A stretch of 32,000 nt of DNA. It comes from Gemmata obscuriglobus. GTDB taxonomy: Bacteria; Planctomycetota; Planctomycetia; Gemmatales; Gemmataceae. The stretch covers positions 2,250,001 to 2,282,000 of the forward strand of contig NZ_CP042911.1 in assembly GCF_008065095.1 (NCBI RefSeq), given 5' to 3'. The notes under the pieces were generated by a model. The model was given only the letters and a program-made list of their open reading frames with translations. It did not search any database and was not told where the DNA came from. Positions within the stretch are counted from its first letter, which is position 1, and every line of letters starts with the position of its first letter. Position numbers and translations under genes: made by a program. Shown piece by piece: positions 3,956 to 31,678 of the stretch.

Positions 3956-3993
3956 TCAGACCGCTCTACTGCTTTTCCGCCGGACCACTCCTC

Positions 3994-5526: not shown

Positions 5527-5588
5527 CCGGGTTCACTTCGACAGCTACCATCAGTCCGACGACGCGACCCGGAGGTCGGCGAATTTCC

Positions 5589-7472
5589 ATGGACCACCTG
5601 CAAACCGAAGCGCGCAACCCGGCGTCGACCGAACTCGATGAGATTTCATCACTTCAGTTCGTGCGGCTGATGCTCGGCGAGGACGCGGCGGTCGTTCCGG
5701 CGGTGGCGTCGCAGGCCGAAGCCCTGGCGCGTGGTGTCGAAGTCATCGCCGGCCGGCTCCGGGCCGGTGGGCGGCTCGTCTACATCGGGGCGGGCACGTC
5801 CGGTCGACTCGGCGTACTCGACGCCAGCGAGTGCCCGCCGACGTTCAACGTGCCTCCGGGGCTGGTAGTTGGACTGATTGCGGGCGGCTCCGGCGCGCTG
5901 ACGCGGGCCATTGAGGGGGCCGAAGATAACCCCGAGTTCGGCGTCACGGACCTCAAGGGCATCGCGCTTTCGGCGGCCGACGTGCTCGTCGGGATCGCGA
6001 CGAGCGGTCGCACCCCCTACGTGCTTTCCGCGGTCGATTACGCCCGCTCGGTTGGCGCGTTCACCATCGGGTTGTCGTGCAACCCGGGGGCGGAAATCAT
6101 TTCTCGCGTGGATCTTGCGATCACACCGGTGGTCGGCCCGGAGGTGCTCAGCGGGTCGACGCGGCTGAAGGCCGGGACCGCGACCAAGCTCGTGCTCAAC
6201 GTCCTCAGCACCGGCGCAATGGTCAAACTGGGCAAGACTTACGGCAACCTGATGGTGGACGTTCGCGCCACCAACGAAAAGCTCCGGGTGCGGACCAACC
6301 GCATCGTTCGGGAGGCGACGGGGCTGGACCACACCGCCGCCGACCGCTTGCTGGAGACGTGCGGGCGCGAGCTGAAGACCGCTCTGGTTGCTCAGCTCGC
6401 GGGCGTTTCGGCCGATGACGCGCGTGACCGGCTTCAACGCACGAACGGCCTCGTGCGGGCCGCCATCACGACCAACGGCACCAACGGCAAAAACGGGCAC
6501 CACCACAAGAACGGTCACGCCAAGGCCGCTCCAGAGAACGTGGTTCTTGGGATCGACGGCGGCGGCACGGGTACGGTGGCACTCCTCGCGGTGCCGGACG
6601 CCGGCGCCGAGGGCGGCTGGAGACTGCTCGGGCGCGGCGAGGCCGGGCCGTCGAACCGGCACGCGGTGGGCACGGACGCGGCCCTGGCGGCGCTCAACGA
6701 GGCCACCACAAAGGCGTTCGCCGCGGCGCACCTGCCGCGCGCCTCGGTGCGCGCGGCGTGCCTCGGGCTGGCCGGCGCCGGACGCCCCGGCGACCAGGAA
6801 ATCGTGCGGGAGTGGGCCGCCCGCGTGCGGCTCTCGGCGGCCGTCGAGGTGGTCGAAGACGCGGCCCTGCTGCTGGCCGCCGGGACCCCCGACGGGGTCG
6901 GCGTCGCGGTGGTCGCGGGGACGGGCTCGATGGCTTACGGCCGCCGCGCCGACGGCACAACGACCCGCGCCGGCGGGTGGGGGCCGCTGCTCGGCGACGA
7001 GGGGAGTGGATACTCGCTGGCGCTCGCCGGGCTCCGCGCCGCGGTCCGCGCGGCCGACGGCCGTATCGCGCCCACGCCGCTGACGGAGCGGCTGCTCGCG
7101 GCGCTGAAACTGGCGCGGCCCCAAGAGCTGGTCGAGTTCGTGTACCGCGGGTGCGACCGGGCGGCGCTCGCGGCACTCGCCCCGGTGGTGCTCGACGTTG
7201 CCGAAGAGGGCGACCCGGCCGCCGATCACATCGTGCGCGAGGCCGCGGGCGAACTCGCCGCCGCCGCCGCTGCTGCCGCCAAAGCGCTGGGCTTCGGCGC
7301 GTCCTTCCCGGTCGCCCTCGCCGGCGGGGTGTTCGGCGCGGGCTGCTACCGCGAGCGCTTCCGCGCCGCGCTCGCGGACCGCGGGCTCACCGCCGATCCG
7401 CTGTCATTCGTTCGCGAACCGGCCGAAGGGGCCGTCCGCCGGGCCTTCGGCCGATCGGTTCGCGTCTCCTAA
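5589..7472 (+). CDS. murQ: fusion protein: N-acetylmuramic acid 6-phosphate etherase (MurQ, SIS domain) + BadF/BadG/BcrA/BcrD-type sugar kinase (MurK / GlcNAc-kinase-like)
   Basis: From Met60 of the track ORF: MDHLQTEARNPASTELDE..., GGRLVYIGAGTSGRLGVLDASECPPTF and GSTRLKAGTATKLVLN, which are MurQ/SIS motifs. An Asn/Gly/His linker TNGTNGKNGHHHKNGH follows. The kinase half then shows VLGIDGGGTGT, GPSN, GLAGAG, VVAGTGSMAYG and GGWGPLLGDEGSGYSLA, which are BadF/BadG ATPase motifs. Confidence 0.85.
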   Translation: MDHLQTEARNPASTELDEISSLQFVRLMLGEDAAVVPAVASQAEALARGVEVIAGRLRAGGRLVYIGAGTSGRLGVLDASECPPTFNVPPGLVVGLIAGGSGALTRAIEGAEDNPEFGVTDLKGIALSAADVLVGIATSGRTPYVLSAVDYARSVGAFTIGLSCNPGAEIISRVDLAITPVVGPEVLSGSTRLKAGTATKLVLNVLSTGAMVKLGKTYGNLMVDVRATNEKLRVRTNRIVREATGLDHTAADRLLETCGRELKTALVAQLAGVSADDARDRLQRTNGLVRAAITTNGTNGKNGHHHKNGHAKAAPENVVLGIDGGGTGTVALLAVPDAGAEGGWRLLGRGEAGPSNRHAVGTDAALAALNEATTKAFAAAHLPRASVRAACLGLAGAGRPGDQEIVREWAARVRLSAAVEVVEDAALLLAAGTPDGVGVAVVAGTGSMAYGRRADGTTTRAGGWGPLLGDEGSGYSLALAGLRAAVRAADGRIAPTPLTERLLAALKLARPQELVEFVYRGCDRAALAALAPVVLDVAEEGDPAADHIVREAAGELAAAAAAAAKALGFGASFPVALAGGVFGAGCYRERFRAALADRGLTADPLSFVREPAEGAVRRAFGRSVRVS

Positions 7473-7482
7473 AAGGTGCTTC

Positions 7483-8928
7483 ATGCTGCGATTGCTCCTC
7501 GGGCTCACGGCCCTGGGCCTCTGCGCGCCCGTGCGCGCCGCGGACCCGCCCGCTCTGAAACGCGAGTTCCGCGCGGTCTGGGTCGCCACCGTCTCGAACA
7601 TCGACTGGCCCAGCAAGCCCGGGCTGCCCGCCGACCAGCAGAAAAAAGAGCTGCTCGCGATCCTCGATAACGCGGTCGAACTGAAGCTCAACGCGGTCAT
7701 CTTCCAGGTGCGGCCGATGGCCGACGCGCTCTACGCCTCGGAACTGGAGCCGTGGAGCGAGTACCTGACGGGCCAGATCGGGAAGGCGCCCGGGTACGAC
7801 CCGCTCGCGTTCGCGGTGACCGAGGCGCACAAGCGGGGGCTGGAACTGCACGCGTGGTTCAACCCGTACCGGGCACGCCATCCGTCGGCGAAGTCCCCGG
7901 CACCGGCCGATCACCTGACCAGGAAGCGGCCGGACCTCGCGAAGCCCTACGGCACGCACGCCTGGATGAACCCCACGAACCCCGAGGTGCAGGAGCACTC
8001 GCTCCGCGTGTTCCTGGACGTGGTGAAGCGGTACGACATCGACGGCATCCACATCGACGATTACTTCTACCCGTACAAGGAAAAGGGCACCGACGGGAAG
8101 GTGATCCCGTTCCCCGACGACGACACCTGGGAGGCATACCAGAAGCAGGGCGGCAAGCTGTCCCGCGACGACTGGCGCCGCGACGCGGTGAACGTGTTCG
8201 TCCGCCGGATGTATGAGGAGACCAAGAAGGCGAAGCCGTGGGTGAAGGTGGGCATCAGCCCGTTCGGCATCTGGCGCCCGGGGCACCCCGCGGGCATCGC
8301 AGGGTTGGACCAGTACGCCGAACTGTACGCCGACGCGAAACTGTGGTTCAACGAGGGCTGGGTCGATTACTTCACGCCGCAACTCTACTGGCCGATCGCT
8401 CAGGAGAAGCAGAGCTTCCCGAAGCTGCTGGACTGGTGGGCGGGTGAGAACACGAAGAAGCGGCACCTGTGGCCCGGGTTGTACACCAGCCGCGTGACCG
8501 GCGCCGCGAAGGGGTGGAACGCGAAGGAGATCGCCGACCAGATCGCGGTGACTCGTCAGCGCAGCGACACCGACGGCGCGGTTCACTTCAGTGCGAAAGC
8601 CCTGGTGCGCAACACCGGCGGCATTGCGGACGAACTGAAGCAGGTCTACGCCGAACCGGCCTTGGTGCCCGCGTCCAACTGGCTCAGCCAAGGGGAGCCG
8701 CCCGCGAAGCCGGAGGCGGTTCGGGAGGTGACTGGCGGGAAGGCCGTTCTTCGCGTGAAAACGGCCCCAGGAACGCGATTCGTGGCCGTGCGTGCCCAAA
8801 CGGGCGATCGGTGGGCCGTGAGCGTTTCTGACGCGTCTGGTGCGATTGCAGTGCCCGAGACGGGAAGGATCGTGGTTACGGCGCTGGACCGGATCGGACG
8901 TGAGAGCGAGCCGGTCGAGGTGAAGTAG
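7483..8928 (+). CDS. secreted glycosyl hydrolase-like family 10 (GHL10 / DUF187, YngK-like) protein
   Basis: Signal peptide MLRLLLGLTALGLCAPVRAA, followed by REFRAVWVATVSNIDWPS, NAVIFQVRP, LHAWFNPY and DGIHIDDYFYP, which are typical of GHL10. The start lies 10 nt after the murQ-fusion stop. The N-terminal 95 aa of the track ORF 7198..8928 overlap the previous gene and are rejected. Confidence 0.8.
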   Translation: MLRLLLGLTALGLCAPVRAADPPALKREFRAVWVATVSNIDWPSKPGLPADQQKKELLAILDNAVELKLNAVIFQVRPMADALYASELEPWSEYLTGQIGKAPGYDPLAFAVTEAHKRGLELHAWFNPYRARHPSAKSPAPADHLTRKRPDLAKPYGTHAWMNPTNPEVQEHSLRVFLDVVKRYDIDGIHIDDYFYPYKEKGTDGKVIPFPDDDTWEAYQKQGGKLSRDDWRRDAVNVFVRRMYEETKKAKPWVKVGISPFGIWRPGHPAGIAGLDQYAELYADAKLWFNEGWVDYFTPQLYWPIAQEKQSFPKLLDWWAGENTKKRHLWPGLYTSRVTGAAKGWNAKEIADQIAVTRQRSDTDGAVHFSAKALVRNTGGIADELKQVYAEPALVPASNWLSQGEPPAKPEAVREVTGGKAVLRVKTAPGTRFVAVRAQTGDRWAVSVSDASGAIAVPETGRIVVTALDRIGRESEPVEVK

Positions 8929-8977
8929 CCGGCACGGAATTGGTTGTCGCGGCAGTTTTCTGATTGAGGCTCACCGT

Positions 8978-9023
8978 CAACGAAGCGAGCCGCCGGGAGG
9001 AACCCCGGCGGCTCGCTTCGTTG
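8978..9023. terminator. perfect 20-bp stem / 6-nt loop hairpin between convergent genes (bidirectional terminator candidate)
   Basis: caacgaagcgagccgccggg - aggaac - cccggcggctcgcttcgttg. It lies between the GHL10 stop (8928) and the lipoprotein stop (9035). There is no clear U-tract. Confidence 0.55.
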
Positions 9024-9034
9024 GCGGCTTATCG

Positions 9035-15756: not shown

Positions 15757-15807
15757 GCGCTCACGGCCCGGGCGATCGCATTTTGCGATCGCCCGGGCCG
15801 TGAGCGC
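15757..15807 (+). terminator. perfect 24-bp stem / 3-nt loop hairpin downstream of the Kelch gene
   Basis: gcgctcacggcccgggcgatcgca - ttt - tgcgatcgcccgggccgtgagcgc. It lies 50 nt after the stop at 15706. The U-tract is weak. Confidence 0.55.
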
Positions 15808-15995
15808 TCTACGGTTCCGAGTGAGCGTTACCCCGTTCGTGGTTCGGCAGAACACGTTTCACGGTGCAACGGGCCGAAACAAAGTGATGAATGTTTTGTA
15901 CATGAGGGGTTCGCGGGCCGCGCGGTGCGAGCAAGCACGACGCGGTCTGACGCGGCGAGCTTGGCCTTGTGGTTTGCCGCGCGGGATGCGATAAG

Positions 15996-17360
15996 ATGTT
16001 CACGTCAGGGTTCTCGCTCCGCACGGCGACGGCGGCTGGTCTCATGCACTTTCACGGTTCGGAAGAATCCGGCTCCATTCCCACTCGCGTTAGCGCGGAT
16101 GTCGCGGTCGTCGGTGGCGGCCCTGTCGGGTGCGCTTCGGCGCTCGCGTTCGCCCGCGCCGGGGCTCGGGTGTGCCTGATCGACCCGAGCGCGCAGTCCC
16201 ATCGGCTCGGGGGCGAGTGGCTGCACCCCACCGGTGCCACGATCCTCGCCGACCTCGGGGTCGACTTCGCGCGCGATCACATTCCGCACGCCGCCGGGCA
16301 CGGGTTCGCCATCTTCCCCAAAGGCTCCGATCCGATCGTCCTCCCCTACGTGGGCGGCGAACGCGGGATCGGGTGCCAGCACCACCTCATCATCAACGCG
16401 GTTCAGAAAGTCGTCGAACGCACACCCGGCATAACCGCGCTTTCGGGATACCGTGCCACGACGGTGAGCCGCGGCACGCTCACCGTGACGAGCGCGGACC
16501 GCAAACGAACTGTCGAAATCGCGGCGGGGTTGATTGTCGGGGCCGACGGGCGGCAATCGGTTGTGCGGCAGTCACTTGGGTACGAAAGCGGCTCGCGCCC
16601 GGTGTCGTACATGCTCGGCGTGCTGATCGACGCCCGGTCGCTGCCATTTGATGGGTACGGGAACGTGTTCCTGGGCGGGCCGGGGCCGGTGCTGGCGTTC
16701 CGCGTGGACGAGCGGCAGGCCCGGATGTGTTTCGACGTGCCCGCAGACCGGGTGGCGTGGGTGCGGAACCCGACCGAACTGCTCGCGGCGTACCAGAACT
16801 GCGTTCCGGCCCCCCTCCGCGAAGCCTGCGCGCGGGCGCTCGCCGAGGCTGCGCCTTCGGTTGCGGCGAACCAGTGGATGCGGCGCCGGCAGTACGGCCG
16901 GAAGGGCGTCGCCCTCGTCGGCGACGCCGTGGGGCACTGCCACCCGCTCTGTGCCGTTGGAATGTCGGTGGGGTTCCTCGACGCGGTGGCCCTGGCGCGG
17001 GCCGGCTCGGTGGAAGAGTACGCGAGCGCCCGGCGCGCCGGCGGGCGCGTGCCGGAACTGCTCTCGATGGGTCTTTACGATCTGTTCGTCGGCGCCGACG
17101 CGGGAAGTACCGAGTTGCGGGAAGCCGTGTACCACACCTGGCGCACGTCGGCCGCAGCGCGGCGCGACACGATGCGCCTGCTGGCGGTGCGCGAGACCCG
17201 TCGTGCGGCGCTGGGCGTCACGTTCGCGCGCCTGCTGGTCGCGGCCTCGCGCCAAGTAGTGACCGGCGCCGCCCGCCGCCCGCTGGCGTACACGGCGGGG
17301 GCCGTTGCCGGATTTGCGAGCTGGGCCGGATGGTTCGCCCGCGAGGCTCTTACAAACTGA
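15996..17360 (+). CDS. FAD-dependent squalene monooxygenase (squalene epoxidase)-like
   Basis: Rossmann motif DVAVVGGGPVGCASALAFARAGARVCLIDP. It also has GADGRQS, and VALVGDAVGHCHPLCAVGMSVG, which resembles the squalene epoxidase GDxxNxRHPLTGGGM box. It lies 9 nt upstream of an oxidosqualene-type cyclase. The start is uncertain (GTG 15969, ATG 15996 or ATG 16044). Confidence 0.7.
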   Translation: MFTSGFSLRTATAAGLMHFHGSEESGSIPTRVSADVAVVGGGPVGCASALAFARAGARVCLIDPSAQSHRLGGEWLHPTGATILADLGVDFARDHIPHAAGHGFAIFPKGSDPIVLPYVGGERGIGCQHHLIINAVQKVVERTPGITALSGYRATTVSRGTLTVTSADRKRTVEIAAGLIVGADGRQSVVRQSLGYESGSRPVSYMLGVLIDARSLPFDGYGNVFLGGPGPVLAFRVDERQARMCFDVPADRVAWVRNPTELLAAYQNCVPAPLREACARALAEAAPSVAANQWMRRRQYGRKGVALVGDAVGHCHPLCAVGMSVGFLDAVALARAGSVEEYASARRAGGRVPELLSMGLYDLFVGADAGSTELREAVYHTWRTSAAARRDTMRLLAVRETRRAALGVTFARLLVAASRQVVTGAARRPLAYTAGAVAGFASWAGWFAREALTN

Positions 17361-17369
17361 TGCCGTCTG

Positions 17370-19322
17370 ATGCCGCACGATCCCACTGCCCGCGCGGCCG
17401 CGCGCCTGACCGAGACCCAGCAGCCCGCCGGGTGCTGGGAAGGCGAGATGATCTGGTGCCCGGTCGTCACGGCACAAGTCGCGATCACGCGGCACGTTGT
17501 CGGGATGCCCTTCTCGGACGCCGACGCGGCCAAGATCATCCGGCACTTCGAGTTCTCCCAACTGCCGAACGGCGCGTTCGGCTTGCACCCGGAACACCCC
17601 GGCTCGGTGTTCGTCACCACGCTCGTGTACGTCGCGGCGCGGTGCCTCGGTGTGAGTGCAGAACACGCCGTCACCGCGAAGGCGCGCGGCTGGCTGCACG
17701 CGCAACCGGGCGGGGTGTTGTCCGCGCCGACGTGGGGTAAGTTCTGGCTCACGCTGCTCGGGCTGTACGGCCGCGACGGGCTGCGCCCGCTGCTCCCTGA
17801 ACTGGCGCTGCTACCCAAAGCGTTCCCCGTCCATCCGGTCCGTTTTTACTGCCACACGCGGTACGTGTACCTGGTGATGTCGCTGCTCCAGGGCGCGCAC
17901 GCGACGTTCGACCTCGGCCCGCTTCGCGCGGAACTGGAACGCGAGTTGTACGGCCCGCTGGCGGTGCCCGAGTCGTTCCGCCAGTACCGCTACCGCCTCG
18001 CCGAAACCGACGCCTTCGAGCCGCCGAACCTGTTCATCCGGGTCGCCGAGCGTGTGATGGGCTGGTACGATCGCGTTGCGCTGCCCGGGCTGCGCCGCGC
18101 GGCACTCAAGCGGTGCGCGGACCTGATCGACCTGGACCTCGACGCGAACGGGTATCTGACCCTGTCGCCGGTGAACGGCACGCTCAACGCACTCGCGCTG
18201 TTCGCACGCGGCGCGGACCGCGAGGTGATCGCCAAGTGCGTGAGCGGGTTCGAGTTCTATCGTTTCGACGACCCCGAGCGCGGGCTGCGGTACTCCGGCG
18301 GCAGTACACGCACCTGGGACACGGGGTTCGCCTTGGAGGCGCTGCTCGCGAACCCGGCGGTGGCCTCCGTGTACCGCGATGTGGTCCATCGGGGCTATCG
18401 GTTCCTGGCCGCGCACCAGATGTCGAAGTCGGTTGCGGGTCGCGATCCGTCGTTCCCGGACACCGCCCGCGGCGGCTGGTGCCTTGGCGACGGGGGGCAC
18501 GCGTGGCCGGTGAGTGATTGCACCGCGGAAGCGCTCTCGGCCGTTCTGAGTGCGCACACGCACGGCATGGCACCCGAGGAACGCATCCCGGACGCCCGGC
18601 TGATCCAGGCCGCCGAGTTCATGCTGACGCGCCAGAACCGGGACGGCGGGTTCGGCTCCTACGAACGCGCCCGCAGCCCGCGCTGGCTCGAACGGATGAA
18701 CCCGTCGGAGATGTTCACCCGGTGCATGACGGACCAGTCGTACATCGAATGTACGGGGTCGTGTCTCGTGGCGCTCGGGCGGTTCCGAAAGGCGATCCCG
18801 CACCACGCGGCCGGACGCATCACCCGGGCGACGAACCGCGGCGCCCGGTTCCTGTTGAGCCGGCAGCGCCCGGATGGCGCGTTCCCCGGAGCGTGGGGGG
18901 TGTACCTCACCTACGGAACGTTCCATGCGGTGCGCGGGCTTCGTGCCGCTGGCTACGCGCCCTCCCACCGGGCACTTCAACGGGCCGCGAACTGGCTCAT
19001 CGCTACCCAAAAGCGGGACGGCGGCTGGGGCGAGGACTACCACGGTTGTCTTCGGCAGGAGTACGTCGAGCACCCCGAGTCGCAGGCCACGATGACGAGT
19101 TGGGCGATTGTAGCGTTGTGCGAGACCGTCGGGACCGGGCACCCGGCCGTGCAAAAAGGGGCCGCGTGGCTCGCGTCACGCCAGCGGGCCGACGGCTCGT
19201 ACCCGCGCGAGGCCGTTAATGGGGTGTTCTTCGGAACGGCGATGCTCGATTACGATCTGTATCGCGCGTACTTTCCGACATGGGCGCTCGCACTGGCTTC
19301 GGGTACAACTGCGAAAAGTTGA
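17370..19322 (+). CDS. oxidosqualene cyclase (lanosterol/parkeol synthase type triterpene cyclase)
   Basis: 650-aa protein with several QW repeats: TETQQPAGCWEGE, MLTRQNRDGGFGSY, LLSRQRPDGAFPGAWG, LIATQKRDGGWGE and LASRQRADGSYP. The catalytic box is VSDCTAE (18510-18530), which is the oxidosqualene cyclase form, not the DxDDTA of squalene-hopene cyclases. Confidence 0.85.
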   Translation: MPHDPTARAAARLTETQQPAGCWEGEMIWCPVVTAQVAITRHVVGMPFSDADAAKIIRHFEFSQLPNGAFGLHPEHPGSVFVTTLVYVAARCLGVSAEHAVTAKARGWLHAQPGGVLSAPTWGKFWLTLLGLYGRDGLRPLLPELALLPKAFPVHPVRFYCHTRYVYLVMSLLQGAHATFDLGPLRAELERELYGPLAVPESFRQYRYRLAETDAFEPPNLFIRVAERVMGWYDRVALPGLRRAALKRCADLIDLDLDANGYLTLSPVNGTLNALALFARGADREVIAKCVSGFEFYRFDDPERGLRYSGGSTRTWDTGFALEALLANPAVASVYRDVVHRGYRFLAAHQMSKSVAGRDPSFPDTARGGWCLGDGGHAWPVSDCTAEALSAVLSAHTHGMAPEERIPDARLIQAAEFMLTRQNRDGGFGSYERARSPRWLERMNPSEMFTRCMTDQSYIECTGSCLVALGRFRKAIPHHAAGRITRATNRGARFLLSRQRPDGAFPGAWGVYLTYGTFHAVRGLRAAGYAPSHRALQRAANWLIATQKRDGGWGEDYHGCLRQEYVEHPESQATMTSWAIVALCETVGTGHPAVQKGAAWLASRQRADGSYPREAVNGVFFGTAMLDYDLYRAYFPTWALALASGTTAKS

Positions 19323-19420
19323 TGGCGTTTAGCTCGTCGCTCTGCGACAGGCTGATGTTGCGTCAGCCGAGCTTCTGCCTTCACACCCCGCGCGGGGAGC
19401 GCTGTTCCAGCACCGCTTCC

Positions 19421-19503
19421 GACCGGTCCGCCCCCCGGACGGTCCAGGTCTGGAACAACCCCGCCGATCGTGGTTCCTGGACCGTCCGGGGGGCGGACCG
19501 GTC
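19421..19503. repeat. perfect 28-bp inverted repeat with 27-nt spacer, downstream of the cyclase gene (terminator or REP-like element)
   Basis: The arm gaccggtccgccccccggacggtccagg (19421-19448) pairs exactly with cctggaccgtccggggggcggaccggtc (19476-19503). No U-tract follows. Confidence 0.85.
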
Positions 19504-19608
19504 GGCGGTGCCGTGAGCGCTCCGCGCCACAGGAAGAGAAGTTAACGCCGTCAACTCCGAACCCCGTGGCTCGTGCCGCGGGGTTCGTGCATTTGCCGAT
19601 TGTAAAAT

Positions 19609-19691: not shown

Positions 19692-20336
19692 ATGTTGCAC
19701 TACCCGAAAATTCCCGGCAGCGCAGCGGCCCCGAATGATCGGTGTGTCGCGTTCGAGAAACTCGACGGCACCAACCTGCATTGGTGCTGGGAACGCGACT
19801 TCGGCTGGCACGCCTTCGGCACACGTCGCGACGAGTTCAACCTGACACCCGACGGCATCGCCGCATTCAACCTCGCGCACCCGGGACTGGAAGAGGCCGC
19901 GCCGGCGTTCATCAACACACTCGCCGAACCGCTCGACACACTTTTGCGGGAGCACCCGAACTACGCCTCCTTTATCACAGTGAAGGTGTTCACCGAGTTT
20001 CTGGGGCCGAACTCGTTTGCAGGCGCACACAAGCCCGACGATCCGAAACGGCTCGTCCTGTTCGACGTTTGGGCGGAGGGATACGGGTTTGCTGTACCGA
20101 AGACATTCGTGACCGACTTCGGTCACCTGCCGACGCCTCGCGTCGTTTATGAGGGGAAGTTGACCGGCACGTTCCTCGAAGCGGTTCGTGAAGGGAAGTA
20201 CGGTTTGGCGGAGGGCGTTGTGTGTAAGGGAGGGCCGGGCGGTGAGGACGTGTGGATGGTGAAGGTGAAGACCTATGAGTACCTTGAGCGCCTGAAGAAG
20301 GCATTCGGAACGAGATGGAACGAATTCTGGGAATGA
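19692..20336 (+). CDS. ATP-dependent RNA ligase-like nucleotidyltransferase (Rnl2-type adenylyltransferase domain only)
   Basis: From internal Met75 of the track ORF: MLHYPKIPG... Motif I is FEKLDGTN (Lys nucleophile), the motif III-like box is KVFTEFLGPNS, motif IV is AEGVVCKG, and motif V is VWMVKVKT. About 214 aa, with no obvious C-terminal or OB domain. Confidence 0.7.
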   Translation: MLHYPKIPGSAAAPNDRCVAFEKLDGTNLHWCWERDFGWHAFGTRRDEFNLTPDGIAAFNLAHPGLEEAAPAFINTLAEPLDTLLREHPNYASFITVKVFTEFLGPNSFAGAHKPDDPKRLVLFDVWAEGYGFAVPKTFVTDFGHLPTPRVVYEGKLTGTFLEAVREGKYGLAEGVVCKGGPGGEDVWMVKVKTYEYLERLKKAFGTRWNEFWE

Positions 20337-20391: not shown

Positions 20392-20811
20392 TCAGGCGGA
20401 TGTGGTCTTGCCTGCCACTTTCTTGAGTCCGGCGGCGCGGTCGAGGGCTTTCGCCTTGTTCGCTCGTTCGATCGCGGTGGAACTCGGCAGTGCGGCGGCC
20501 TCGTTCGCGGCGGCCGTTACCATTTCGGCGGTGATCGCCGCTGCGGCCTTCGCACTGGCGGTCAGCACGGTGACCACGTTCAACCGCACCTGGACGAAAC
20601 CGGCCTCAACGAAGAAACGCTTCGTTGTGGAGCCGGTGACGAGACGCAGCTCGCCCGCCCCGAGCCGGCCGATGAGCGGCGAGCGGCCCGGCTGTACGCC
20701 CAGCTCGCCGTCGATCATCGGCAGGATGACCATGTCTGCGGTGTCGTCGAGTACGGCCTTTTCGGGCGTAACGACGACCACCTTGAGGTTGCGCGAAGTC
20801 GGTTCGGCCAT
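20392..20811 (-). CDS. atpC: F1 ATP synthase subunit epsilon
   Basis: MAEPTSRNLKVVVVTPEKAVLDDTADMVILPMIDGELGVQPGRSPLIGRLGAGELR is the typical epsilon N-terminal beta-sandwich. It is the last gene of the atp operon. The start is taken at ATG 20811 (Met15 of the track ORF). Confidence 0.9.
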   Translation of the reverse strand: MAEPTSRNLKVVVVTPEKAVLDDTADMVILPMIDGELGVQPGRSPLIGRLGAGELRLVTGSTTKRFFVEAGFVQVRLNVVTVLTASAKAAAAITAEMVTAAANEAAALPSSTAIERANKAKALDRAAGLKKVAGKTTSA

Positions 20812-20902
20812 GGGAGTACAGTGAGGAGTGAGGGTGAGGGGTGCGGAATTCACAAGAGGCGGGAGCGAACGAACCGCTCCTCGCCCTGTGACTCCGACCC
20901 AC

Positions 20903-22862
<1,960 letters not shown>

Positions 22863-23203
22863 TCGGCCTCCGAAGACCGAGCAGTCTCATGTCTCTGACC
22901 CAAAACCACACAGCGGCAGCGGCCAACAGGAGCCAAGACCAAGAAGCCAGAATCACTCGGCCGGCCCCACCGCCTTGGTGCGAAACCCCGCCACTCTCTG
23001 TTCTCGCCGTTTCAGTTCGTTCAACGTATTCGTGCCACGGGCTGAACGACAATCCGGTCGCGTAATGGCGCTCGACGACTCGCGTGTTATCTAGCTCCTG
23101 ATGCTGCTCGTGAGTAACACCTGTGGGAGTGAAAAATAGACCCAGAAGCACACTGATACCGAACAGGAACAGACACCGTTCACGGATCGTTCCCATCGTG
23201 ATC

Positions 23204-24109
23204 TCACTTTAGCGCTTCGGAGCCGGCGATCAGCTCCGAGATTTCCTTCGTGATGTTCGCCTGGCGCGTGCGGTTGTACAGCCGCGTGATGTCCTTGATG
23301 AGGTCGCCGGCGTTCTCGGTCGCGGCCTTCATCGCGATCCGGCGGGCGATCTGCTCGCTCACCGCGGCGTCGAGGAACATCTTGAACAGGCGCACTTTCA
23401 GGGCGGCCGGAACCAGTTCTTCGAGGATCTCGGCGGCGTTCGGGATGAACTCGTATTCGACCTTCGCGTCGGTCCCGCCGGCCGCGTTTTCGGTCGCGGC
23501 CGGAGCGCTCTTCCGCGTCTCGACACCGACCGACGACAGCGGCAGCAGTGTCTCAACAACGGCTTGCTGCTTCGCGGCGCTGACGAACCGGGTGTAAACG
23601 ACCTTCACCTCGTCGATCTGGCCCGAGATGAAGAGGTCGACGTACCGGCTGGCGACCGCATCCACCTCAGCGAAGCTCGGCTTGTCCTCGAAGTTGGTGT
23701 ACTCTCGGGTCCGCGGCACGCCCTGGAACTTGAAGAACGCGATGCCGCGCTTGCCCGAGACCTCGAGGTCGAACGGGGCGTTGCTCGCGGTCAGTTGGCG
23801 TGTGAGTGGCAGCGCCTCGCGGAGCACACTGCCGTTGTACCCGCCGCACAGCCCGCGGTTGGCGGTAATGACCAGCACCACCGTCTTCTTGACAGGCCGG
23901 GTGGCGAGCAGCGGGTGCGTCACGTCGCCCGCGTTCTTGCTGAGGTCGGCGGCCAGCTCCGCGATCTTGCGGGTGTACGCTTCCGCCTCGGTGGCGCGGT
24001 CGAGCGCCTTCTTGAAGCGGGCGGTCGCGATCAGTTCCATCGTCTTCGTGATCTTGCGGATGTTCCGCACGGCCTTGCGGCGCTTCACGAGTACACGAAG
24101 GTTTGCCAT
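23204..24109 (-). CDS. atpG: F1 ATP synthase subunit gamma
   Basis: MANLRVLVKRRKAVRNIRKITKTMELIATARFKKA..., the C-terminal YNRTRQANITKEISELIAGSEAL, and LCGGYN. Confidence 0.95.
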   Translation of the reverse strand: MANLRVLVKRRKAVRNIRKITKTMELIATARFKKALDRATEAEAYTRKIAELAADLSKNAGDVTHPLLATRPVKKTVVLVITANRGLCGGYNGSVLREALPLTRQLTASNAPFDLEVSGKRGIAFFKFQGVPRTREYTNFEDKPSFAEVDAVASRYVDLFISGQIDEVKVVYTRFVSAAKQQAVVETLLPLSSVGVETRKSAPAATENAAGGTDAKVEYEFIPNAAEILEELVPAALKVRLFKMFLDAAVSEQIARRIAMKAATENAGDLIKDITRLYNRTRQANITKEISELIAGSEALK

Positions 24110-24135
24110 CGGCGTTGGTGTTTCGTGTTTGGTGT

Positions 24136-24402
24136 TTAGTGGTTGATCCGCCCCGGCGGAACCGGCACGTGATACGCGGTGATCACGAAGACCAGGTCCT
24201 CATCGCCGAGACCGTTGTGGCGCCAGATGATCTTCACCCACCGCCCGTTCGGCACCCGCCCGTAACTCTCGACGCCCGGCTCGGGCTCGTCCCACTCGGC
24301 AACGTCTCGCCGGTGCTCCCACGCGAACTCCACCTCGTCGGTCGACAGGTGGTGCATGGCCAGTTTCGCTTGGTTCCAATCGATCCAGAGAAACTGAGCC
24401 AT
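24136..24402 (-). CDS. DUF497 / BrnT-like small protein (possible orphan toxin), inserted between atpA and atpG
   Basis: 88 aa. FLWIDWNQAKLAMHHLSTDEVEFAW resembles the F-x-WD-x-x-K...KHG...E-x-x-x-F start of DUF497. ...GRWVKIIWRHNG...LVFVITAY resembles its C-terminal strands. No antitoxin-sized ORF lies adjacent. The call is based on pattern memory only. Confidence 0.4.
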   Translation of the reverse strand: MAQFLWIDWNQAKLAMHHLSTDEVEFAWEHRRDVAEWDEPEPGVESYGRVPNGRWVKIIWRHNGLGDEDLVFVITAYHVPVPPGRINH

Positions 24403-24465
24403 GCCTCCTTTTCGCTGTGGTGAACCGGTGGGACAGTAACCCCGACACTCCGGGGGGACAAACTA

Positions 24466-26190
24466 TTAGGCTTTGAACTGCGGCTGGAAGGCCGCGATCG
24501 CCTCGTTGAGCGCCTTAACCACGTCGTCGCTCATCTTCTTCTCTTTGGCGAGCAGGGCCCGGCTCTCCGGCTTCTGCTCCTTCATGAACTTCAGGAACTG
24601 GTCTTCCCAGTCCTTCACCTTGCGGCGGTCGACCTTGTCCAGGGCACCGGTGTTGGCGGCGTAGATGATCATGATCTGGTCGATCACGTTCATCGGCTTG
24701 TACTGCCCCTGCTTCAGAATCTCGACCATGCGGTAGCCGCGGTCGAGGCGGGCCTGAGTGTCCTTGTCGAGGTCCGTACCGAGCTGGGCGAACGCCTCCA
24801 ACTCGCGGAACTGGGCCAGCGCCAGCTTCAACCCGCCCGCGACCGTCTTGTGCTTCATCGCACCGATCTGGGCGTTACCGCCGACGCGCGACACCGAGAT
24901 GCCGACGTCCACGGCCGGGAGCACGCCGGCGTTCTTGAGGTCCGGCTGGAGGTAGATCTGACCGTCGGTGATCGAGATCACGTTGGTCGGGATGTACGCG
25001 GACACTTCGCCTTCGAGCGTCTCGATGATCGGGAGCGCCGTGAGCGAGCCGCCGCTGCCGGCGATCTTCGCGATCTTCGCGCCGGGGAAGTTCTTGAGGT
25101 CGTGCTTGGCCTGCTCCAGCCCGCCGCGGTCGCCCGGGCCGACGTACACCATACCGGTGTCGCCGGGGCCGCGCCGCTCGGTCGGCTTGCCGGCCTTGTT
25201 GATGCCCCAATGGGCCGCGGCGTCCTTGTCCTCGGTCGAGGCGTCGAGGATGACGTACTTCTCGGCCAGCTTTGCGGACCGCTCGAGCAACCGGGAGTGG
25301 CAGTAGAACACGTCGCCCGGGTACGCCTCGCGGCCCGGAGGGCGACGCACCAGCAGCGAGAGCTGGCGGTACGCGGCGGCCTGCTTCGAGAGGTCGTCGT
25401 ACACGCAAAGCGTGTCCTTGCCCTGCTCGTACATGAAGTACTCGGCCATCGCGGTGCCCGCGTACGGCGCGAGGTACTGGAGCGGGGCGGCGTCGGCGGC
25501 GCTGGCGACCACGACGATGGTGTAATCCATCGCGCCGGTCTTGCGCAGGATCTCGACGACGCCGGCGACCTTCGACTCCATCTGCCCGCACGCGACGTAC
25601 ACGCAGACGACGCTTTCTTCCTTCTGGTTGATGATGGTGTCGAGCGCGATCGCGGTCTTACCGGTCTTGCGGTCGCCGATGATCAACTCGCGCTGCCCGC
25701 GGCCCACCGGGGTCATGGCGTCGATGGCCTTGATCCCGGTCTGGAGCGGCTGCTTCACCGGCTGGCGGTCGACGATCCCGGGGGCGGGCGACTCAACGAG
25801 CCGGCGCTTCGTGGTTTGGATCGGCCCCTTGCCGTCGAGCGGGTTGCCGAGCGGGTCCACGACGCGGCCGATGAGGCCCTCGCCGACCGGCACCGACAGC
25901 AGCTCGCCGGTGGTGCGGACCTCCATCCCCTCGGTGACCTTCAGGTAGTCGCCGAGGATGATGACCGCGACCGAGCTCTCTTCGAGGTTGAACGCGAGCC
26001 CTTTCACCCCGGCCTGCGGGAAGTCCACCAGCTCGCCGGCCATCACCTCGGACAGGCCGTAGCAGCGCGCGATGCCGTCGCCGACTTCAAGCACCTGCCC
26101 GACGGCCCGGGTCTCCACCTTCCGGTCGAAGGTGGAGATCGAGTTCTTCAGGACGCTGATGATTTCGCTGGCGTTGATTTTAGTTGCCAT
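24466..26190 (-). CDS. atpA: F1 ATP synthase subunit alpha, carrying a ~55-65-aa internal insertion
   Basis: Walker A is GDRKTGKTA. Also present are [57 protein letters not shown] and [10 protein letters not shown]. At 574 aa it is longer than the roughly 500-515 aa usual for bacterial alpha subunits. Confidence 0.95.
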
Positions 26191-26788
26191 GGCTACCGCC
26201 CTTGTCGAGCAAGAGTGTCCGGAGGGTCTGGAGTCGCGTGCGAACCGAGGTGTCGACGACCGAGTCGCCGACCTGCACCACCAGCCCGCCGAGCAGGTCG
26301 GGGTCCACCCGCACGTTCAACACGGGGTCTTGTTTCAGCAGCTTCTTAAGGTTCTCGGTCAGCTTCGCCATCTGGTCGTCGGTGAGCGGGACCGCGGCGG
26401 TGATTTTCACCGGCACCTGGCCCGCCTGCTCCGCGATGAGCCGCCGGTACGCGGCCGCGACGGGCCGGAGGAGGGCCAAGCGGTTGTTCTGTTGCAGCGT
26501 CGCGATCAGACCGCGGAGCGTGCGCGACGCGCGGTCGCTCAACGCCGTTTCAAGGGCGGCGGCACGAACCTTCTTGCCGACCACGGGGCTGACGAGCATG
26601 TTCGCAACGGTCGCGTCCGCGCCCACGGCATCGACGAACGCGGTCAGTTCGGCGGCCAGTTCAGTGGGCGCCGCGGGGGACACCTGTTGGGCCGACGCGA
26701 GCAGCGCCTCGGCGTACACCCGTGCCAGTCGCGACTTAGTCGTGCCGGCGTCGAGAACGGTTTCGTGTTTGACTTCGACGTTTGCCAT
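26180..26788 (-). CDS. atpH: F1 ATP synthase subunit delta (OSCP)
   Basis: It sits between atpF and atp[12 protein letters not shown] and the C-terminal [20 protein letters not shown] are typical delta motifs. The 3' end overlaps the atpA start by 11 nt. ATG 26788 is preferred over the GTG at 26821. Confidence 0.85.
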
Positions 26789-26936
26789 GATCGCGGTTCC
26801 GGTTCGCTTCGGTCCAGACACTCACGCCGCTGGTGCCACAAGACAGTTGCCGCCCTGAACCCGGAGAACGCTTTCGGAGTTCAAGACGGGCCGGCCCCTT
26901 GTAGCCAGGGGCGTGTGCCCCTGGGTTTTCGCCCGG

Positions 26937-27527
26937 TCATGCCTTGGTCGCGTTGAGTTCCGCGATGGAGGCGCTCACCAGTTCGCTTTGGGCGTCGACG
27001 GTCACTTGCTGGCGAACCGCCTTGGTTGCCATGAGGGTCGCAAGTTCGACGGCCTTGGTGTACACGTCCTTGAGGGCCGCGTCACGCTCGATGGCGACAT
27101 CCCGCCGTGCCCGCTCTCGCTCGGCCTCGGCTTCCTTGCGCCCTTCTTCTGCTAGCGTCTTCTTCAACACTTCGGCGTCGCGCCGGGCCTCGTCCACAAT
27201 GGCCTTGGCCTGCTGAGCCGCTGCCGCCAACTCGGCGTCCAATTTGGAACGCAGAGCCGCAGCGTCTTCCTTGGCCTTCTTGGCGTCCTCAATGGCCTGG
27301 AACTGGGCCGCCTCGCGGGCTTGCAAGCCTTTAAGGATCGGCCCCCAGGCGAACGCGTACAGGATCGCCAGCAGAGCCACGAACACGATCACGGTGACGA
27401 TCGAGTTCACGAGGTCCGGTTTCAGCACGTTCGTCGAACCGCCGCCCTCGGACGCCGCCAGCGCGAGAGTCGGCAACAAGAGGACGGCCGCGGTCGCGCA
27501 AGCCGCCCGGATGAATGTGGTCGTCAT
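26937..27527 (-). CDS. atpF: Fo ATP synthase subunit b, with signal-peptide-like N-terminus
   Basis: One TM segment (IVTVIVFVALLAILYAFAW) is followed by a long charged Ala/Glu/Lys/Arg helix (AAQFQAIEDAKKAKEDAAALRSKLDAEL...). ATG 27527 has GAGAGGTGG upstream. The track start 27551 is a GTG. Confidence 0.85.
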   Translation of the reverse strand: MTTTFIRAACATAAVLLLPTLALAASEGGGSTNVLKPDLVNSIVTVIVFVALLAILYAFAWGPILKGLQAREAAQFQAIEDAKKAKEDAAALRSKLDAELAAAAQQAKAIVDEARRDAEVLKKTLAEEGRKEAEAERERARRDVAIERDAALKDVYTKAVELATLMATKAVRQQVTVDAQSELVSASIAELNATKA

Positions 27528-27569
27528 GTGTTGCCACCTCTCGTCGGACACAGTTTCGGGGCCGGTCGC

Positions 27570-27917
27570 TTAGGAGATCTTGTTGACGAGGCCGAAGCAA
27601 ATCACCAGCAGGGCGATGATGGCGGCACCTTCGACGAGCGCGGCCAGCACGATCATGTTGACCTGGATCGCGCCCTTCTGCTCCGGCTGGCGGGCGATGG
27701 CGGACAGGGCCGACCACCCGATGAGGCCGATGCCCAGGCCGGCGCCGAGGATGGCGAGGCCGGCACCGATACCCGCACCGATCCCAGCGCCGAGGCTGTT
27801 GTTGGAAGCGGCCGCGGTGGTGGTCGCGGGAGCGGCCGGATCGGCCGCGAGGGCCGGAACGGCGGCGAAGGCGGCCAGAGCGATCAGGGCGAGCGCGAAC
27901 CGGTAAGCGAACTTCAT
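27570..27917 (-). CDS. atpE: Fo ATP synthase subunit c, with ~40-aa N-terminal extension resembling a cleavable signal peptide
   Basis: The C-terminal ~75 aa form a classic c-subunit hairpin: Gly-rich helix 1 (GAGIGAGIGAGLAILGAGLGIGLIG), loop ARQPE, and helix 2 with the carboxylate in LAALVEGAAII. The N-terminus is MKFAYRFALALIALAAFAAVPALA|AD. Confidence 0.9.
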   Translation of the reverse strand: MKFAYRFALALIALAAFAAVPALAADPAAPATTTAAASNNSLGAGIGAGIGAGLAILGAGLGIGLIGWSALSAIARQPEQKGAIQVNMIVLAALVEGAAIIALLVICFGLVNKIS

Positions 27918-27979
27918 CTGACGGTCCCTTTCAAACGGGGTGGAAAGCGTGTCCCGACTCGCGGCCGGGCGGCTACGGG

Positions 27980-28858
27980 TTAGTGTTCCGGGTTCAGTTG
28001 CATTCCGAGGAAGATCGACGACAGCAGTACGAACACGAACGCCTGGAGGAACGCGACGAACAGTTCCAGCACGCTCAGCGCGGTCGCCATCACGACCGCC
28101 GCAACGGTGCCGCCCGGCGACAGCCCGCCTTGGATCGGGTCGGCCACGGCGAACAGCAGGATCGCACCGAGGGCGACGTGGCCGGCGAAGATGTTCGCGA
28201 ACAAACGGATCGCGAGCACCGCGGCCCTGATGAACGCCCCCATCACCTCAATCGCGGCGATCAGCGGTACGATGGCGACCGTCAGGAAGATCGTCATCGG
28301 CAGGTTGTCGGCCTTCAGTCGCGGGATGTACGACATCACGTACTTGCCGACACCCAACTTGCGGACGGCGGACACATGCGTGACGAGAAACACGCTGAGC
28401 GCCAGCACAAGCGTGATACTCAATTCGGCCGTAGGGGAGCCGAGGAACGGTACCATGCCGAGCAGGTTGCACGCGAGGATGAACAGGAACAGCGTCCACA
28501 GGAACGGCACGTAGCGGTCCGCGTAGTGGACGTGCGGCTGCGCGACCGGCGGGTGCGGGTGCGTCTGGTCCGCGATAGCCGCCGAGATCCCGTGGGGCTC
28601 GTCGTGCTCGTCGTGGTGGTGTTCATGCCCCGAGTGGATGTTCGGCCGGGCGACTTCGTCCCGGATGAACAGCAGGAGCATTTCGAGGAAATTCCAGAAC
28701 GGCCCACGCGGCGGCGTTCCGTCCTGGGTGCGGCGGGCCAGCAAGATGTACGGGATCGCAACGCAGGCGGCCGCAACCACCAGTAGAACTTGATACTTGG
28801 AGAACGGCCCGAGCCATTTTTCATGGTCGAGAACGTGTTCGAGCGCGTTTGCGGCCAT
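27980..28858 (-). CDS. atpB: Fo ATP synthase subunit a, with a His-rich loop
   Basis: Polytopic protein. It carries the conserved Arg region AVLAIRLFANIFAGH and a C-terminal LQAFVFVLLSSIFL. It sits directly upstream of atpE. Confidence 0.92.
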   Translation of the reverse strand: MAANALEHVLDHEKWLGPFSKYQVLLVVAAACVAIPYILLARRTQDGTPPRGPFWNFLEMLLLFIRDEVARPNIHSGHEHHHDEHDEPHGISAAIADQTHPHPPVAQPHVHYADRYVPFLWTLFLFILACNLLGMVPFLGSPTAELSITLVLALSVFLVTHVSAVRKLGVGKYVMSYIPRLKADNLPMTIFLTVAIVPLIAAIEVMGAFIRAAVLAIRLFANIFAGHVALGAILLFAVADPIQGGLSPGGTVAAVVMATALSVLELFVAFLQAFVFVLLSSIFLGMQLNPEH

Positions 28859-28956
28859 GTTCTGCGATCCTCTGGTCCGCTCGGGCTTTCATTGCCCGGG
28901 TGCCCGAGTCTGGGCACGTTTCAAGTAAGGTTCGTTCCGCCAGACCGAATCAACCG

Positions 28957-29193
28957 TTAGTTGGAGCCACCGGGCTTCTGTCGGTCGGCCTGCTTCATCA
29001 TGAACAGCAGATGCGCGATGCCGCCGGCGAATCCGACAACCCCGCCAACTGCCAGTCCCCAAGGAGACCAACCGAACCGCTGATCGAGCCAGACCCCGAT
29101 GACGATCGGGGCTACTAATTCCATAACCGCGGTGCCGGCGATAGCGAGCCCGCGATAGTCGCTGGCGTCTCGCCCGCCCGGAGATCGGCTCAC
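28957..29193 (-). CDS. atpZ: AtpZ/AtpR-type small membrane protein (ATPase_gene1 family)
   Basis: GLAIAGTAVMELVAPIVIGVWLDQRFGWSPWGLAVGGVVGFAGGIAHLL fits the two-helix AtpZ pattern (W-L-D...-P-W). The GTG start at 29193 overlaps the TGA stop of the upstream ORF (GTGA), which indicates translational coupling. The longer track ORF (to 29508) is rejected. Confidence 0.65.
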   Translation of the reverse strand: MSRSPGGRDASDYRGLAIAGTAVMELVAPIVIGVWLDQRFGWSPWGLAVGGVVGFAGGIAHLLFMMKQADRQKPGGSN

Positions 29194-29594
29194 CGCGTCC
29201 CTCCCGATTGACGGCCGGTCATCAATAACCCGCATTCGAGTGCGAGAGTGACGATGTACAAGTACGCGACCCATCTGGCGAACTGGTCCGGCGGGATGCC
29301 GTGAGGCTTGAGAGCCTGACCGAGCATCACGACCCCGACGACCGCCACGGTCATCCGCATCCCTGTTCCGAGCAGCACTGCCATGGGACCAAGCAGCGGT
29401 GCCCGCTCGAACACCTTCTCCGCGAACACGAGTGTGGCCACTGCCGTTGTCACGCACATCGCGGTTGCAACCGCTGCTGCTAGCGCCGCTCCTGTTCCCG
29501 ATGCCCATTCGAGCTGTTCGGCTACCACCAGCCCAGTAGCGGCGCCGAGTGCGCTCCCGGCTACCAGAGCGACAACCTTTCGGGCTGGTCGCAC
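29190..29594 (-). CDS. atpI: ATP synthase protein I-like hydrophobic protein
   Basis: 134 aa and strongly hydrophobic, with about 4 helices. It is the first gene of the atp operon and is coupled to atpZ. The call rests on position and hydropathy, not on a recognisable motif. Confidence 0.55.
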   Translation of the reverse strand: MRPARKVVALVAGSALGAATGLVVAEQLEWASGTGAALAAAVATAMCVTTAVATLVFAEKVFERAPLLGPMAVLLGTGMRMTVAVVGVVMLGQALKPHGIPPDQFARWVAYLYIVTLALECGLLMTGRQSGGTR

Positions 29595-31531: not shown

Positions 31532-31572
31532 TCGCCGCGCTGCAGGAGAGACAGAAGAGGAATGACCGCGAA

Positions 31573-31646
31573 GAAGCACAAAAGAGAACCAAGGACAAGA
31601 GCTTGAATTTCTTCAACTCTGCCTTGATTCCTTTTTGTGCTTTTTT
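31573..31646 (+). terminator. AT-rich imperfect long hairpin followed by a T-tract (intrinsic terminator of the DUF4912 gene)
   Basis: gaagcacaaaagagaaccaagg ... ccttgattcctttttgtgc pair with a few mismatches. TTTTTT follows at 31641-31646. A nested agagcttgaa/ttcaactct stem sits in the loop. Confidence 0.6.
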
Positions 31647-31678
31647 GCTTTCCTTCGCGGCCAATCTGTTGGGTTCTT

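Follow-up and report, generated by a model that had tools for sequence, protein, structure and literature searches.

The sqmo-osc sterol operon of Gemmata obscuriglobus and a multi-copy structured element directly downstream of it

Sterol synthesis in bacteria matters for the question of how eukaryotic membranes arose and for the reading of sterane fossils. For the planctomycete Gemmata obscuriglobus it is stated, in the part of Rivas-Marin et al. (2019; PMC6606645) that refers to Pearson et al. (2003), that only lanosterol and parkeol are made and that this is the most minimal sterol pathway reported. The genes for a squalene monooxygenase (sqmo) and a 2,3-oxidosqualene cyclase (osc) are co-located and have been termed the sterol synthesis operon. 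Disruption of sqmo or of osc yielded colonies that could not be propagated, terbinafine reduced sterols and growth, with an effect that depended on the dose, and exogenous lanosterol restored sterols and growth as well as budding (Rivas-Marin et al., 2019; PMC6606645). Homologs of ERG1 and ERG7 in Gemmata have also been described by Desmond and Gribaldo (PMC2817430). With two genes, two sterols and a pathway that is essential, Gemmata is the minimal model, and its value as such has already been realized in the literature. The operon was reportedly studied by Pearson, Budin and Brocks in 2003 and by Gudde et al. in 2019. Here, a stretch of 32,000 nt from the genome of G. obscuriglobus was analyzed (contig NZ_CP042911.1, positions 2,250,001 to 2,282,000; this whole stretch is called the window, and its first nucleotide is position 1), which contains sqmo, osc, and a structured element directly 3' of osc that belongs to a multi-copy family (Table 1). 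What is said on the sterol products, on both genes being essential, on inhibition by terbinafine and on rescue by lanosterol is taken from the papers, while the present analysis concerns the identity of the locus, the membership of the proteins in their families, the conservation of the catalytic residues and of the gene pair, and the search of the window for tailoring genes.

The same two families adjoin one another in Methylococcus capsulatus and other Methylococcaceae, with identities of 44-49% for the cyclase and 27-34% for the monooxygenase. Compared to Gemmata the two genes are in the opposite order, with sqmo about 200-300 nt downstream of osc. According to the passages of PMC7306690 and PMC2817430 that cite this work, Methylococcaceae go on to demethylate their sterols, using CYP51 and a bacterial C-4 demethylation, whereas Gemmata stops at lanosterol and parkeol. 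Human lanosterol synthase (1W6K) shares with Osc the two-barrel domains, the VSDCTAE box, the Cys partners, the His/Tyr pair for deprotonation and most of the aromatic residues that stabilize the cation, but the N-terminus of Osc is about 80 residues shorter. Similarly, human squalene monooxygenase (SQLE, 6C6N) has the GxGxxG, DG and GD motifs and the C-terminal SE domain in common with Sqmo, but the relationship is distant (70 bits), and Sqmo is devoid of the eukaryotic N-terminal regulatory region. The squalene-hopene cyclase of Alicyclobacillus acidocaldarius (PDB 1GSZ/2SQC) belongs to the same superfamily as Osc and has the domains and the QW repeats in common with it. However, it protonates an alkene via a DxDD box, whereas Osc has a DCTAE box and fails the hopene-cyclase model.

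Identity and layout of the sterol operon

Over its 650 aa Osc shares 100% identity with P0001, a G. obscuriglobus protein that is encoded on a 9.03-Mb contig and was retrieved from a large protein collection, and the DNA of the window is 99.9-100% identical to the NCBI assembly GCA_000171775.1 (ABGO01000020.1). Therefore, the locus is the very operon that had been suspected. The DNA is also 100% identical to two metagenome assemblies (Logan). A first-pass annotation of the window had proposed a two-gene sterol cassette, a squalene monooxygenase followed by an oxidosqualene cyclase, and had assigned it to the Gemmata sterol locus or a close relative; both reading frames lie where it had placed them, both families were recovered, and the locus turned out to be exactly the former. 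We put the probability that positions 15996-19322 represent the known, published sqmo-osc operon at about 0.97, and no difference to the published locus, its gene order and its co-location was found (PMC6606645). The cassette is not new, it has been known since 2003. The annotation had also predicted that the two enzymes yield a protosterol, in line with the lanosterol and parkeol of the organism, and the checks it had named, namely sterol analysis by GC-MS, terbinafine and gene disruption, have favorable published outcomes (PMC6606645). It had seen no genes for demethylation at C-14 or C-4, and indeed no sterol-tailoring genes were found among the genes of the window.

The reading frame of sqmo extends from an ATG at 15996 to the stop codon at 17360, and an alternative in-frame GTG is located 27 nt upstream, at 15969. 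Its product has 454 aa in the NCBI assembly of G. obscuriglobus and 438 aa in one metagenome gene call (Logan). The osc frame extends from an ATG at 17370 to the stop codon at 19322; the predicted distance of 9 nt between the two genes was correct. The spacer has the sequence TGCCGTCTG, and its length and the absence of a terminator are consistent with co-transcription of sqmo and osc. We infer that the two genes form one transcription unit, and the positions of its promoter and terminator are likewise putative. The Kelch-repeat gene upstream ends at 15706, ahead of a palindrome with 100% complementary arms, for which folding predicted -58.1 kcal/mol (z = -9.8). The palindromic motif does not occur a second time in the window. 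It probably represents the 3' hairpin or terminator of the Kelch gene and would delimit the sterol transcription unit on its upstream side. A scan of the region 15808..15995 and the surroundings of the operon for the sigma-70 consensus gave no match, and a scan for intrinsic terminators around the operon yielded nothing useful. In the genetic study the promoter of sqmo itself was used when the operon was restored (Rivas-Marin et al., 2019; PMC6606645).

Table 1. Features of the window and further copies of the structured element. Positions are those of the window unless a locus handle (L) is given.
Feature	Position	Strand	Basis or remark
sqmo, squalene monooxygenase/epoxidase, FAD-dependent, 454 aa	15996..17360	+	Pfam SE, FAD_binding_3, human SQLE 6c6n, published genetics
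osc, 2,3-oxidosqualene cyclase (lanosterol/parkeol synthase), 650 aa	17370..19322	+	TIGR03463, SQHop_cyclase_N and _C, human lanosterol synthase
Intergenic spacer, 9 nt	17361..17369	+	No terminator
GxGxxG dinucleotide (FAD) motif GGGPVG, Sqmo residues 40-45	16113..16130	+	Aligns with GAGVLG of human SQLE
GD FAD motif GDAVGHCHPLCAVGM, Sqmo residues 309-323	16920..16964	+	Generic to group A flavoprotein monooxygenases
VSDCTAE protonation box of Osc	18510..18530	+	D383 = human D455, C384 = C456, V381 = V453
Perfect palindrome, 24-nt arms, 3-nt loop, between Kelch-repeat gene and sqmo	15757..15807	.	Inverted-repeat scan, folding
Non-coding leader, presumed promoter region of the operon	15808..15995	+	
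Structured element directly 3' of osc, core hairpin 19419-19505	19318..19600	+	Multi-copy family
Other copies of the element	L005:7924-8238, L006:7927-8241, loci L084-L203		
NamZ exo-beta-N-acetylmuramidase	2783-3955	+	
Sodium:solute symporter (SSF)	3877-5526	+	
686-aa fusion, SIS (MurQ/GKRP-like) and BadF/BcrA-type ATPase	5412-7472	+	
GHL10 glycosyl-hydrolase-like protein	7198-8928	+	

The draft ABGO01000020.1 of 2008 deviates from the window at both hairpins that flank the operon. At about 380-415 of the draft sequence (our locus L001) the upstream palindrome (window 15790) is interrupted halfway by a chimeric join to window positions 4579-4992, and at L001 4047-4402 the downstream hairpin (window 19431-19497) holds an artefactual insert of about 350 nt that includes a poly-C run of about 150 nt. 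Both assembly artefacts are resolved in the present window.

The conservation of the gene pair was analyzed by a genome-wide scan for relatives of Osc, which gave 80 bacterial loci. In most of the 80 loci a gene of the SE type adjoins osc (Gemmataceae, Methylococcaceae, Rokubacteria/Methylomirabilota, Acidobacteriota and others). The order sqmo-osc is found in Gemmataceae, i.e., in Gemmata, Frigoriglobus, Fimbriiglobus and related metagenome-assembled genomes (MAGs). Among the remaining loci in which sqmo adjoins osc, the majority have the order osc-sqmo; these belong to Methylococcaceae, other Proteobacteria and Acidobacteriota. Loci of Rokubacteria/Methylomirabilota carry sqmo on the opposite strand, downstream of osc. 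One myxobacterial locus has sqmo upstream of osc, and many other myxobacterial osc loci have no adjacent sqmo within 6 kb. The lineage-specific order of the two genes is a minor new point. Since genomes of Frigoriglobus and Fimbriiglobus as well as MAGs carry the cassette, sterol genes in planctomycetes reach beyond G. obscuriglobus.

Assignment of the two enzymes

With the NCBIfam model TIGR03463 for 2,3-oxidosqualene cyclases Osc reached 1190.2 bits, at a cutoff of 851 and over model positions 2-633 of 634. Both alpha/alpha barrels are represented by Pfam domains (SQHop_cyclase_N, 168 bits; SQHop_cyclase_C, 175 bits), and the best solved match is human lanosterol synthase (1W6K; E 5e-103, 349 bits). 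The first-pass annotation had noted at least five QW repeats; six QW-like repeats (Q-x2-5-G-x-W/F/Y) were found, starting at residues 17, 64, 422, 499, 547 and 605. The translation of positions 18510-18530 gives VSDCTAE, as had been read before, and in the alignment with the solved human cyclase WPVSDCTAEAL of Osc lies column-for-column on WIVSDCTAEAL of the human enzyme. The Asp of the DCTAE box thereby aligns with the catalytic D455, as had been proposed. Conserved from human to Osc are the catalytic residues D455 (D383), C456 (C384) and C533 (C461), the deprotonation residues H232 (H162) and Y503 (Y431), and the cation-stabilizing residues W387 (W316), W581 (W509), F696 (F620) and Y704 (Y628). 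In addition, the lanosterol-type V, not I, is kept at human position 453 (V381). Judged from its sequence, Osc is a member of the oxidosqualene cyclase clade and not a squalene-hopene cyclase. In a published phylogeny Gemmata belongs to the "OSC1" group (PMC7306690), and a further published tree of these cyclases is found in PMC2817430.

The Pfam domain SE (PF08491) was detected in Sqmo with 77.2 bits at a gathering score of 20.1 (residues 177-412, profile positions 2-253 of 276), and FAD_binding_3 is present as well. Sqmo contains the motifs of group A flavoprotein monooxygenases, i.e., GGGPVG at 40, DGRQS at 184 and GDAVGHCHPL at 309. The first-pass annotation had taken the box GDAVGHCHPLCAVGM for a signature of squalene epoxidases. 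The box is indeed present at residues 309-323, but it is a generic GD motif and aligns to GDAYNMRHPLTGGGM of human SQLE and also to GDAAHTIHPLAGQG of VisC. Because the UbiH-type VisC aligns to the same box, it alone cannot mark a squalene epoxidase. The assignment of Sqmo rests on the SE domain, on the best solved relative and on the conserved linkage to osc. This relative is human squalene monooxygenase 6C6N (E 2.2e-18, 69.7 bits), while the next solved match, the UbiH-like VisC, is 11 orders of magnitude weaker (E 7.3e-8, 35 bits). The Tyr in VNGYMIH of human SQLE, which we take to be Y195, a contact of allylamine-type inhibitors, aligns to a Phe in Sqmo (about F79, window about 16230). The Phe might be related to the high terbinafine doses that are needed.

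A few observations, none of them substantive, weigh against the assignment of the pair to sterol synthesis. The NCBI name for P0001 is "Squalene--hopene cyclase". The active site of Osc differs from the human enzyme at Y98 (M27), W230 (Y160), F444 (L372) and C449 (H377), and T381 falls into a one-residue gap. The SE score of Sqmo (77 bits) is hardly higher than that of the generic FAD_binding_3 (76 bits), and no NCBIfam equivalog for squalene monooxygenase is matched by Sqmo. Therefore, taken on its own, the sequence of Sqmo gives moderate evidence, and it is the published genetics and inhibitor data that carry its assignment. The substitutions in Osc, including the gap at T381, may be linked to the formation of parkeol as a side product. 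They leave Osc with a cycloartenol-type H at 449 and yet a V at 453, and this H449/V453 pair is given for Gemmata in the passage of Desmond and Gribaldo (PMC2817430) that cites Summons et al. (2006).

If the NCBI name were correct, Osc would make hopanoids directly from squalene, and the upstream flavoenzyme would be unrelated to it. The designation of the Pfam domains as SQHop_cyclase points to the same function, yet these domains are common to the whole superfamily. However, the score of Osc with the hopene_cyclase model TIGR01507 is 213.5 bits and thus under the cutoff of 431.1, in stark contrast to its score with TIGR03463. Furthermore, Osc has the DCTAE box and nowhere a DxDD (D.DD) motif, it is nearer to the human cyclase than to the squalene-hopene cyclase of A. 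acidocaldarius (E 1e-39, 139 bits), and the organism makes lanosterol and parkeol (PMC6606645). A function as hopene cyclase is thus extremely improbable, the earlier placement of the cyclase outside that family is upheld, and, by model scores, motifs and the comparison with solved relatives, the NCBI name is a misannotation. It could also be imagined that the FAD enzyme is a quinone hydroxylase of the UbiH/Coq6 type or a geranylgeranyl reductase that merely lies beside osc, and that squalene is epoxidized by another enzyme. The top NCBIfam matches of Sqmo are models for "FAD-dependent hydroxylase" and the UbiH/UbiF family, which would agree with this view, as would the generic nature of the GD box. 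But these matches are 4- to 15-fold under the cutoffs (e.g., 65 vs. 225 and 75 vs. 487), and Sqmo stays several-fold under every cutoff of the NCBIfam models for UbiH/UbiF/Coq6 and geranylgeranyl reductases (TIGR01988, 65.5 vs. 224.65; TIGR02032, 43.1 vs. 158.8; PRK models, at most 75 vs. 384-653). In contrast, it passes the SE cutoff, it has human SQLE as a far better solved match than VisC, and linkage of its gene to osc recurs in several phyla. In addition, sqmo disruption and terbinafine deplete sterols, and lanosterol rescues growth (PMC6606645). Therefore, this alternative is very improbable, in agreement with the first-pass annotation, which had named a grouping with either family as a refutation of its reading.

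For the preferred reading, a squalene monooxygenase followed by an oxidosqualene cyclase, the reactions can be outlined as follows, with the chemical roles of single Osc residues proposed by analogy to the human enzyme. Sqmo would use FAD, O2 and a reductant to convert squalene to (S)-2,3-oxidosqualene. Asp383 in the DCTAE box of Osc, activated by Cys384 and Cys461, would protonate the epoxide, and the substrate would be folded and cyclized via the protosteryl cation. Deprotonation in the region of His162/Tyr431 would yield lanosterol, and parkeol would be the isomer that results from an alternative deprotonation. The pathway ends at these two sterols without any tailoring.

The structured element downstream of osc

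About 100 nt past the osc stop codon lies a perfect inverted repeat (19419-19505) with 30-nt arms and a 27-nt spacer, which folds at -89.8 kcal/mol (z = -9.6). Orthologous osc loci of other Gemmata have the same architecture, with conserved flanks and loop and wholly different arms. At such loci the identity at four-fold degenerate sites of the flanking genes is 0.7-0.8 and that of the loop is 0.7-0.9, while the arms have an identity of 0.2-0.4, which corresponds to chance. The consensus fold of three species comprises 94 pairs, 37 of which show compensatory changes. As an observation, the element is worth more than the sterol cassette. In our reading it is an undescribed multi-copy structured element that is not part of the sterol pathway.

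The family was retrieved from metagenomes by searching for the conserved flanks, TTCCAGCACCGC and GCGGTGCCGTGAG, with a gap of 75-105 nt between them. At least 120 stretches matched, nearly all of them exactly 113 nt long and several from one assembly. Together with the copies in osc loci, at least 122 distinct cores are available, which stem from Gemmataceae-like genomes and metagenomes. Relative to the core, the sequence is conserved between about -78 (GTTTAGCTCG) and about +30, and the apical loop of 27 nt is conserved, too. In the 29-bp stem 96-97% of the cells are Watson-Crick pairs and about 1% are G.U, and at each variable position all four types of Watson-Crick pairs occur with similar frequency. 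An alignment of 106 copies was used to evaluate a specified structure of 77 pairs. In this alignment the structure was 95.2% paired, compared to 72.5% in shuffles (none of 500 shuffles reached the observed value). Its covariation score of 0.572 compares to 0.122 for shuffles and, with the partners slid, to 0.096 or less. Fifty pairs have changed on both sides. Covariation is seen in the helices P1a and P1b, and support for the long helix is strong. Helix 7 had served as the search pattern and by construction does not vary. Outside of the conserved GUUUA...UAGAC the element is closed by a copy-specific duplex, the two sides of which pair at -25.9 kcal/mol within a copy and at -14.7 kcal/mol across copies. 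About 10% of the pairs in this closing duplex are G.U, compared to 0.3% in the long stem. In many copies the element is followed on the plus strand by a GC-rich hairpin with a U-rich tail. Internal palindromes of at least 6 nt are present in 82% of the stem arms, compared to 41 +/- 4% in shuffles, and the arms change by blocks between copies. The copies are mostly intergenic and favor the 3' ends of genes; 23 lie between convergent and 8 between divergent genes.

Tentatively, the roughly 275 nt of positions 19318-19600 can be read as a member of an undescribed multi-copy family in Gemmataceae, made up of functional structured RNAs with a copy-specific closing duplex, a conserved three-way scaffold, a conserved apical loop and a strictly Watson-Crick stem of 25-29 bp that is randomized between copies, even at orthologous loci; this is possible, but we would not rate it as probable. 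The plain alternative is an intergenic element of the REP/BIME type, or a terminator, with a palindrome that is kept perfect by template-switch mutagenesis. The element may also represent the 3' end or terminator of the sterol operon transcript. A more specific idea is a retron-like template RNA that is copied to DNA by a reverse transcriptase acting in trans. The layout presumably resembles that of retron msr-msd RNA. A closing duplex (a1/a2-like), short 5' hairpins and a long 3' hairpin are present, which is a likeness in layout only. This idea would explain why G.U pairs are avoided in the long stem only. However, a crude and approximate screen for the motifs NAxxH ... Y/FxDD ... VTG found no reverse-transcriptase-like open reading frame in 693 kb around about 120 copies, and no curated retron RNA model in Rfam is matched by the element. 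A retron-like function is improbable.

No protein family was found to recur beside the copies. An Rfam search with the element gave no family at the gathering score and nothing relevant at E<=10; the weak matches were generic, of long hairpins to miRNA precursors, and far under the cutoffs. A literature search for a matching repeat, sRNA or retron in Gemmata or Planctomycetes retrieved nothing relevant. One idea on the variable stem was rejected, namely that it acts as a guide for, or was copied from, its own flanks or nearby DNA: the longest shared substring is 6.1 both with its own flanks and with those of other copies, and no 14-mer of an arm recurs within its locus. The element lies at the 3' end of an operon that is essential and genetically tractable, and the organism can be cultured; how the element is transcribed and processed, and what it does, is thus directly testable.

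Long hairpins are also found shortly past the stop codons of other plus strand genes in the window, i.e., the Kelch gene (15757-15807), the GHL10 gene (8974-9027) and a DUF4912 gene (31560-31656), and a similar hairpin follows osc in Gemmata sp. IIL30 (L009:7953-8066). The arms of these gene-end hairpins are 24-43 nt long; two are perfect, two are 95-96% and one is 77% complementary, and clear U-tracts are missing. In these genomes, such structures appear to be the norm at gene ends. The loops of the hairpins at 8974-9027, 31560-31656 and in L009 share no sequence with the loop of the element.

Neighboring genes

Downstream of the element, on the plus strand, lies a gene for a minimal nucleotidyltransferase of 214 aa with the ligase motif I EKLDGTN (19692-20336). 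The product matches Pfam RNA_ligase with 27.1 bits at a threshold of 27.0 and PHROG 548, "RNA ligase", with E 8.5e-9; it has no NCBIfam match and no solved relative. An RNA-ligase-like gene is found downstream of osc in several Gemmata genomes (loci L004, L005, L009 and L016). A tie between this gene and the element was considered and rejected, because the ligase gene adjoins the element only at orthologous osc loci. On the minus strand follows the F1Fo ATP synthase operon (20392-29508) with the genes for subunits a, c, b, delta, alpha, gamma, beta and epsilon. It carries a DUF1569 gene between beta and gamma (22377-22862), an open reading frame for 88 aa without a family between gamma and alpha (24136-24402), and upstream a weakly AtpI-like open reading frame (28957-29508). 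In close Gemmata relatives, synteny extends to the ligase gene and the ATP synthase operon.

Upstream of the sterol operon, the plus strand contains a cluster that resembles a peptidoglycan amino-sugar recycling system (2783-8928; Table 1), and also two DUF1559 genes, a gene for a sigma-54 activator and the gene for the Kelch-repeat protein. In the region 1-2708 the coding strand is ambiguous. An open reading frame for 854 aa on the plus strand (78-2642) has no Pfam match, while the open frame on the minus strand, which runs off the window edge, is suggested to be the real gene because of its GC3 of 0.94.

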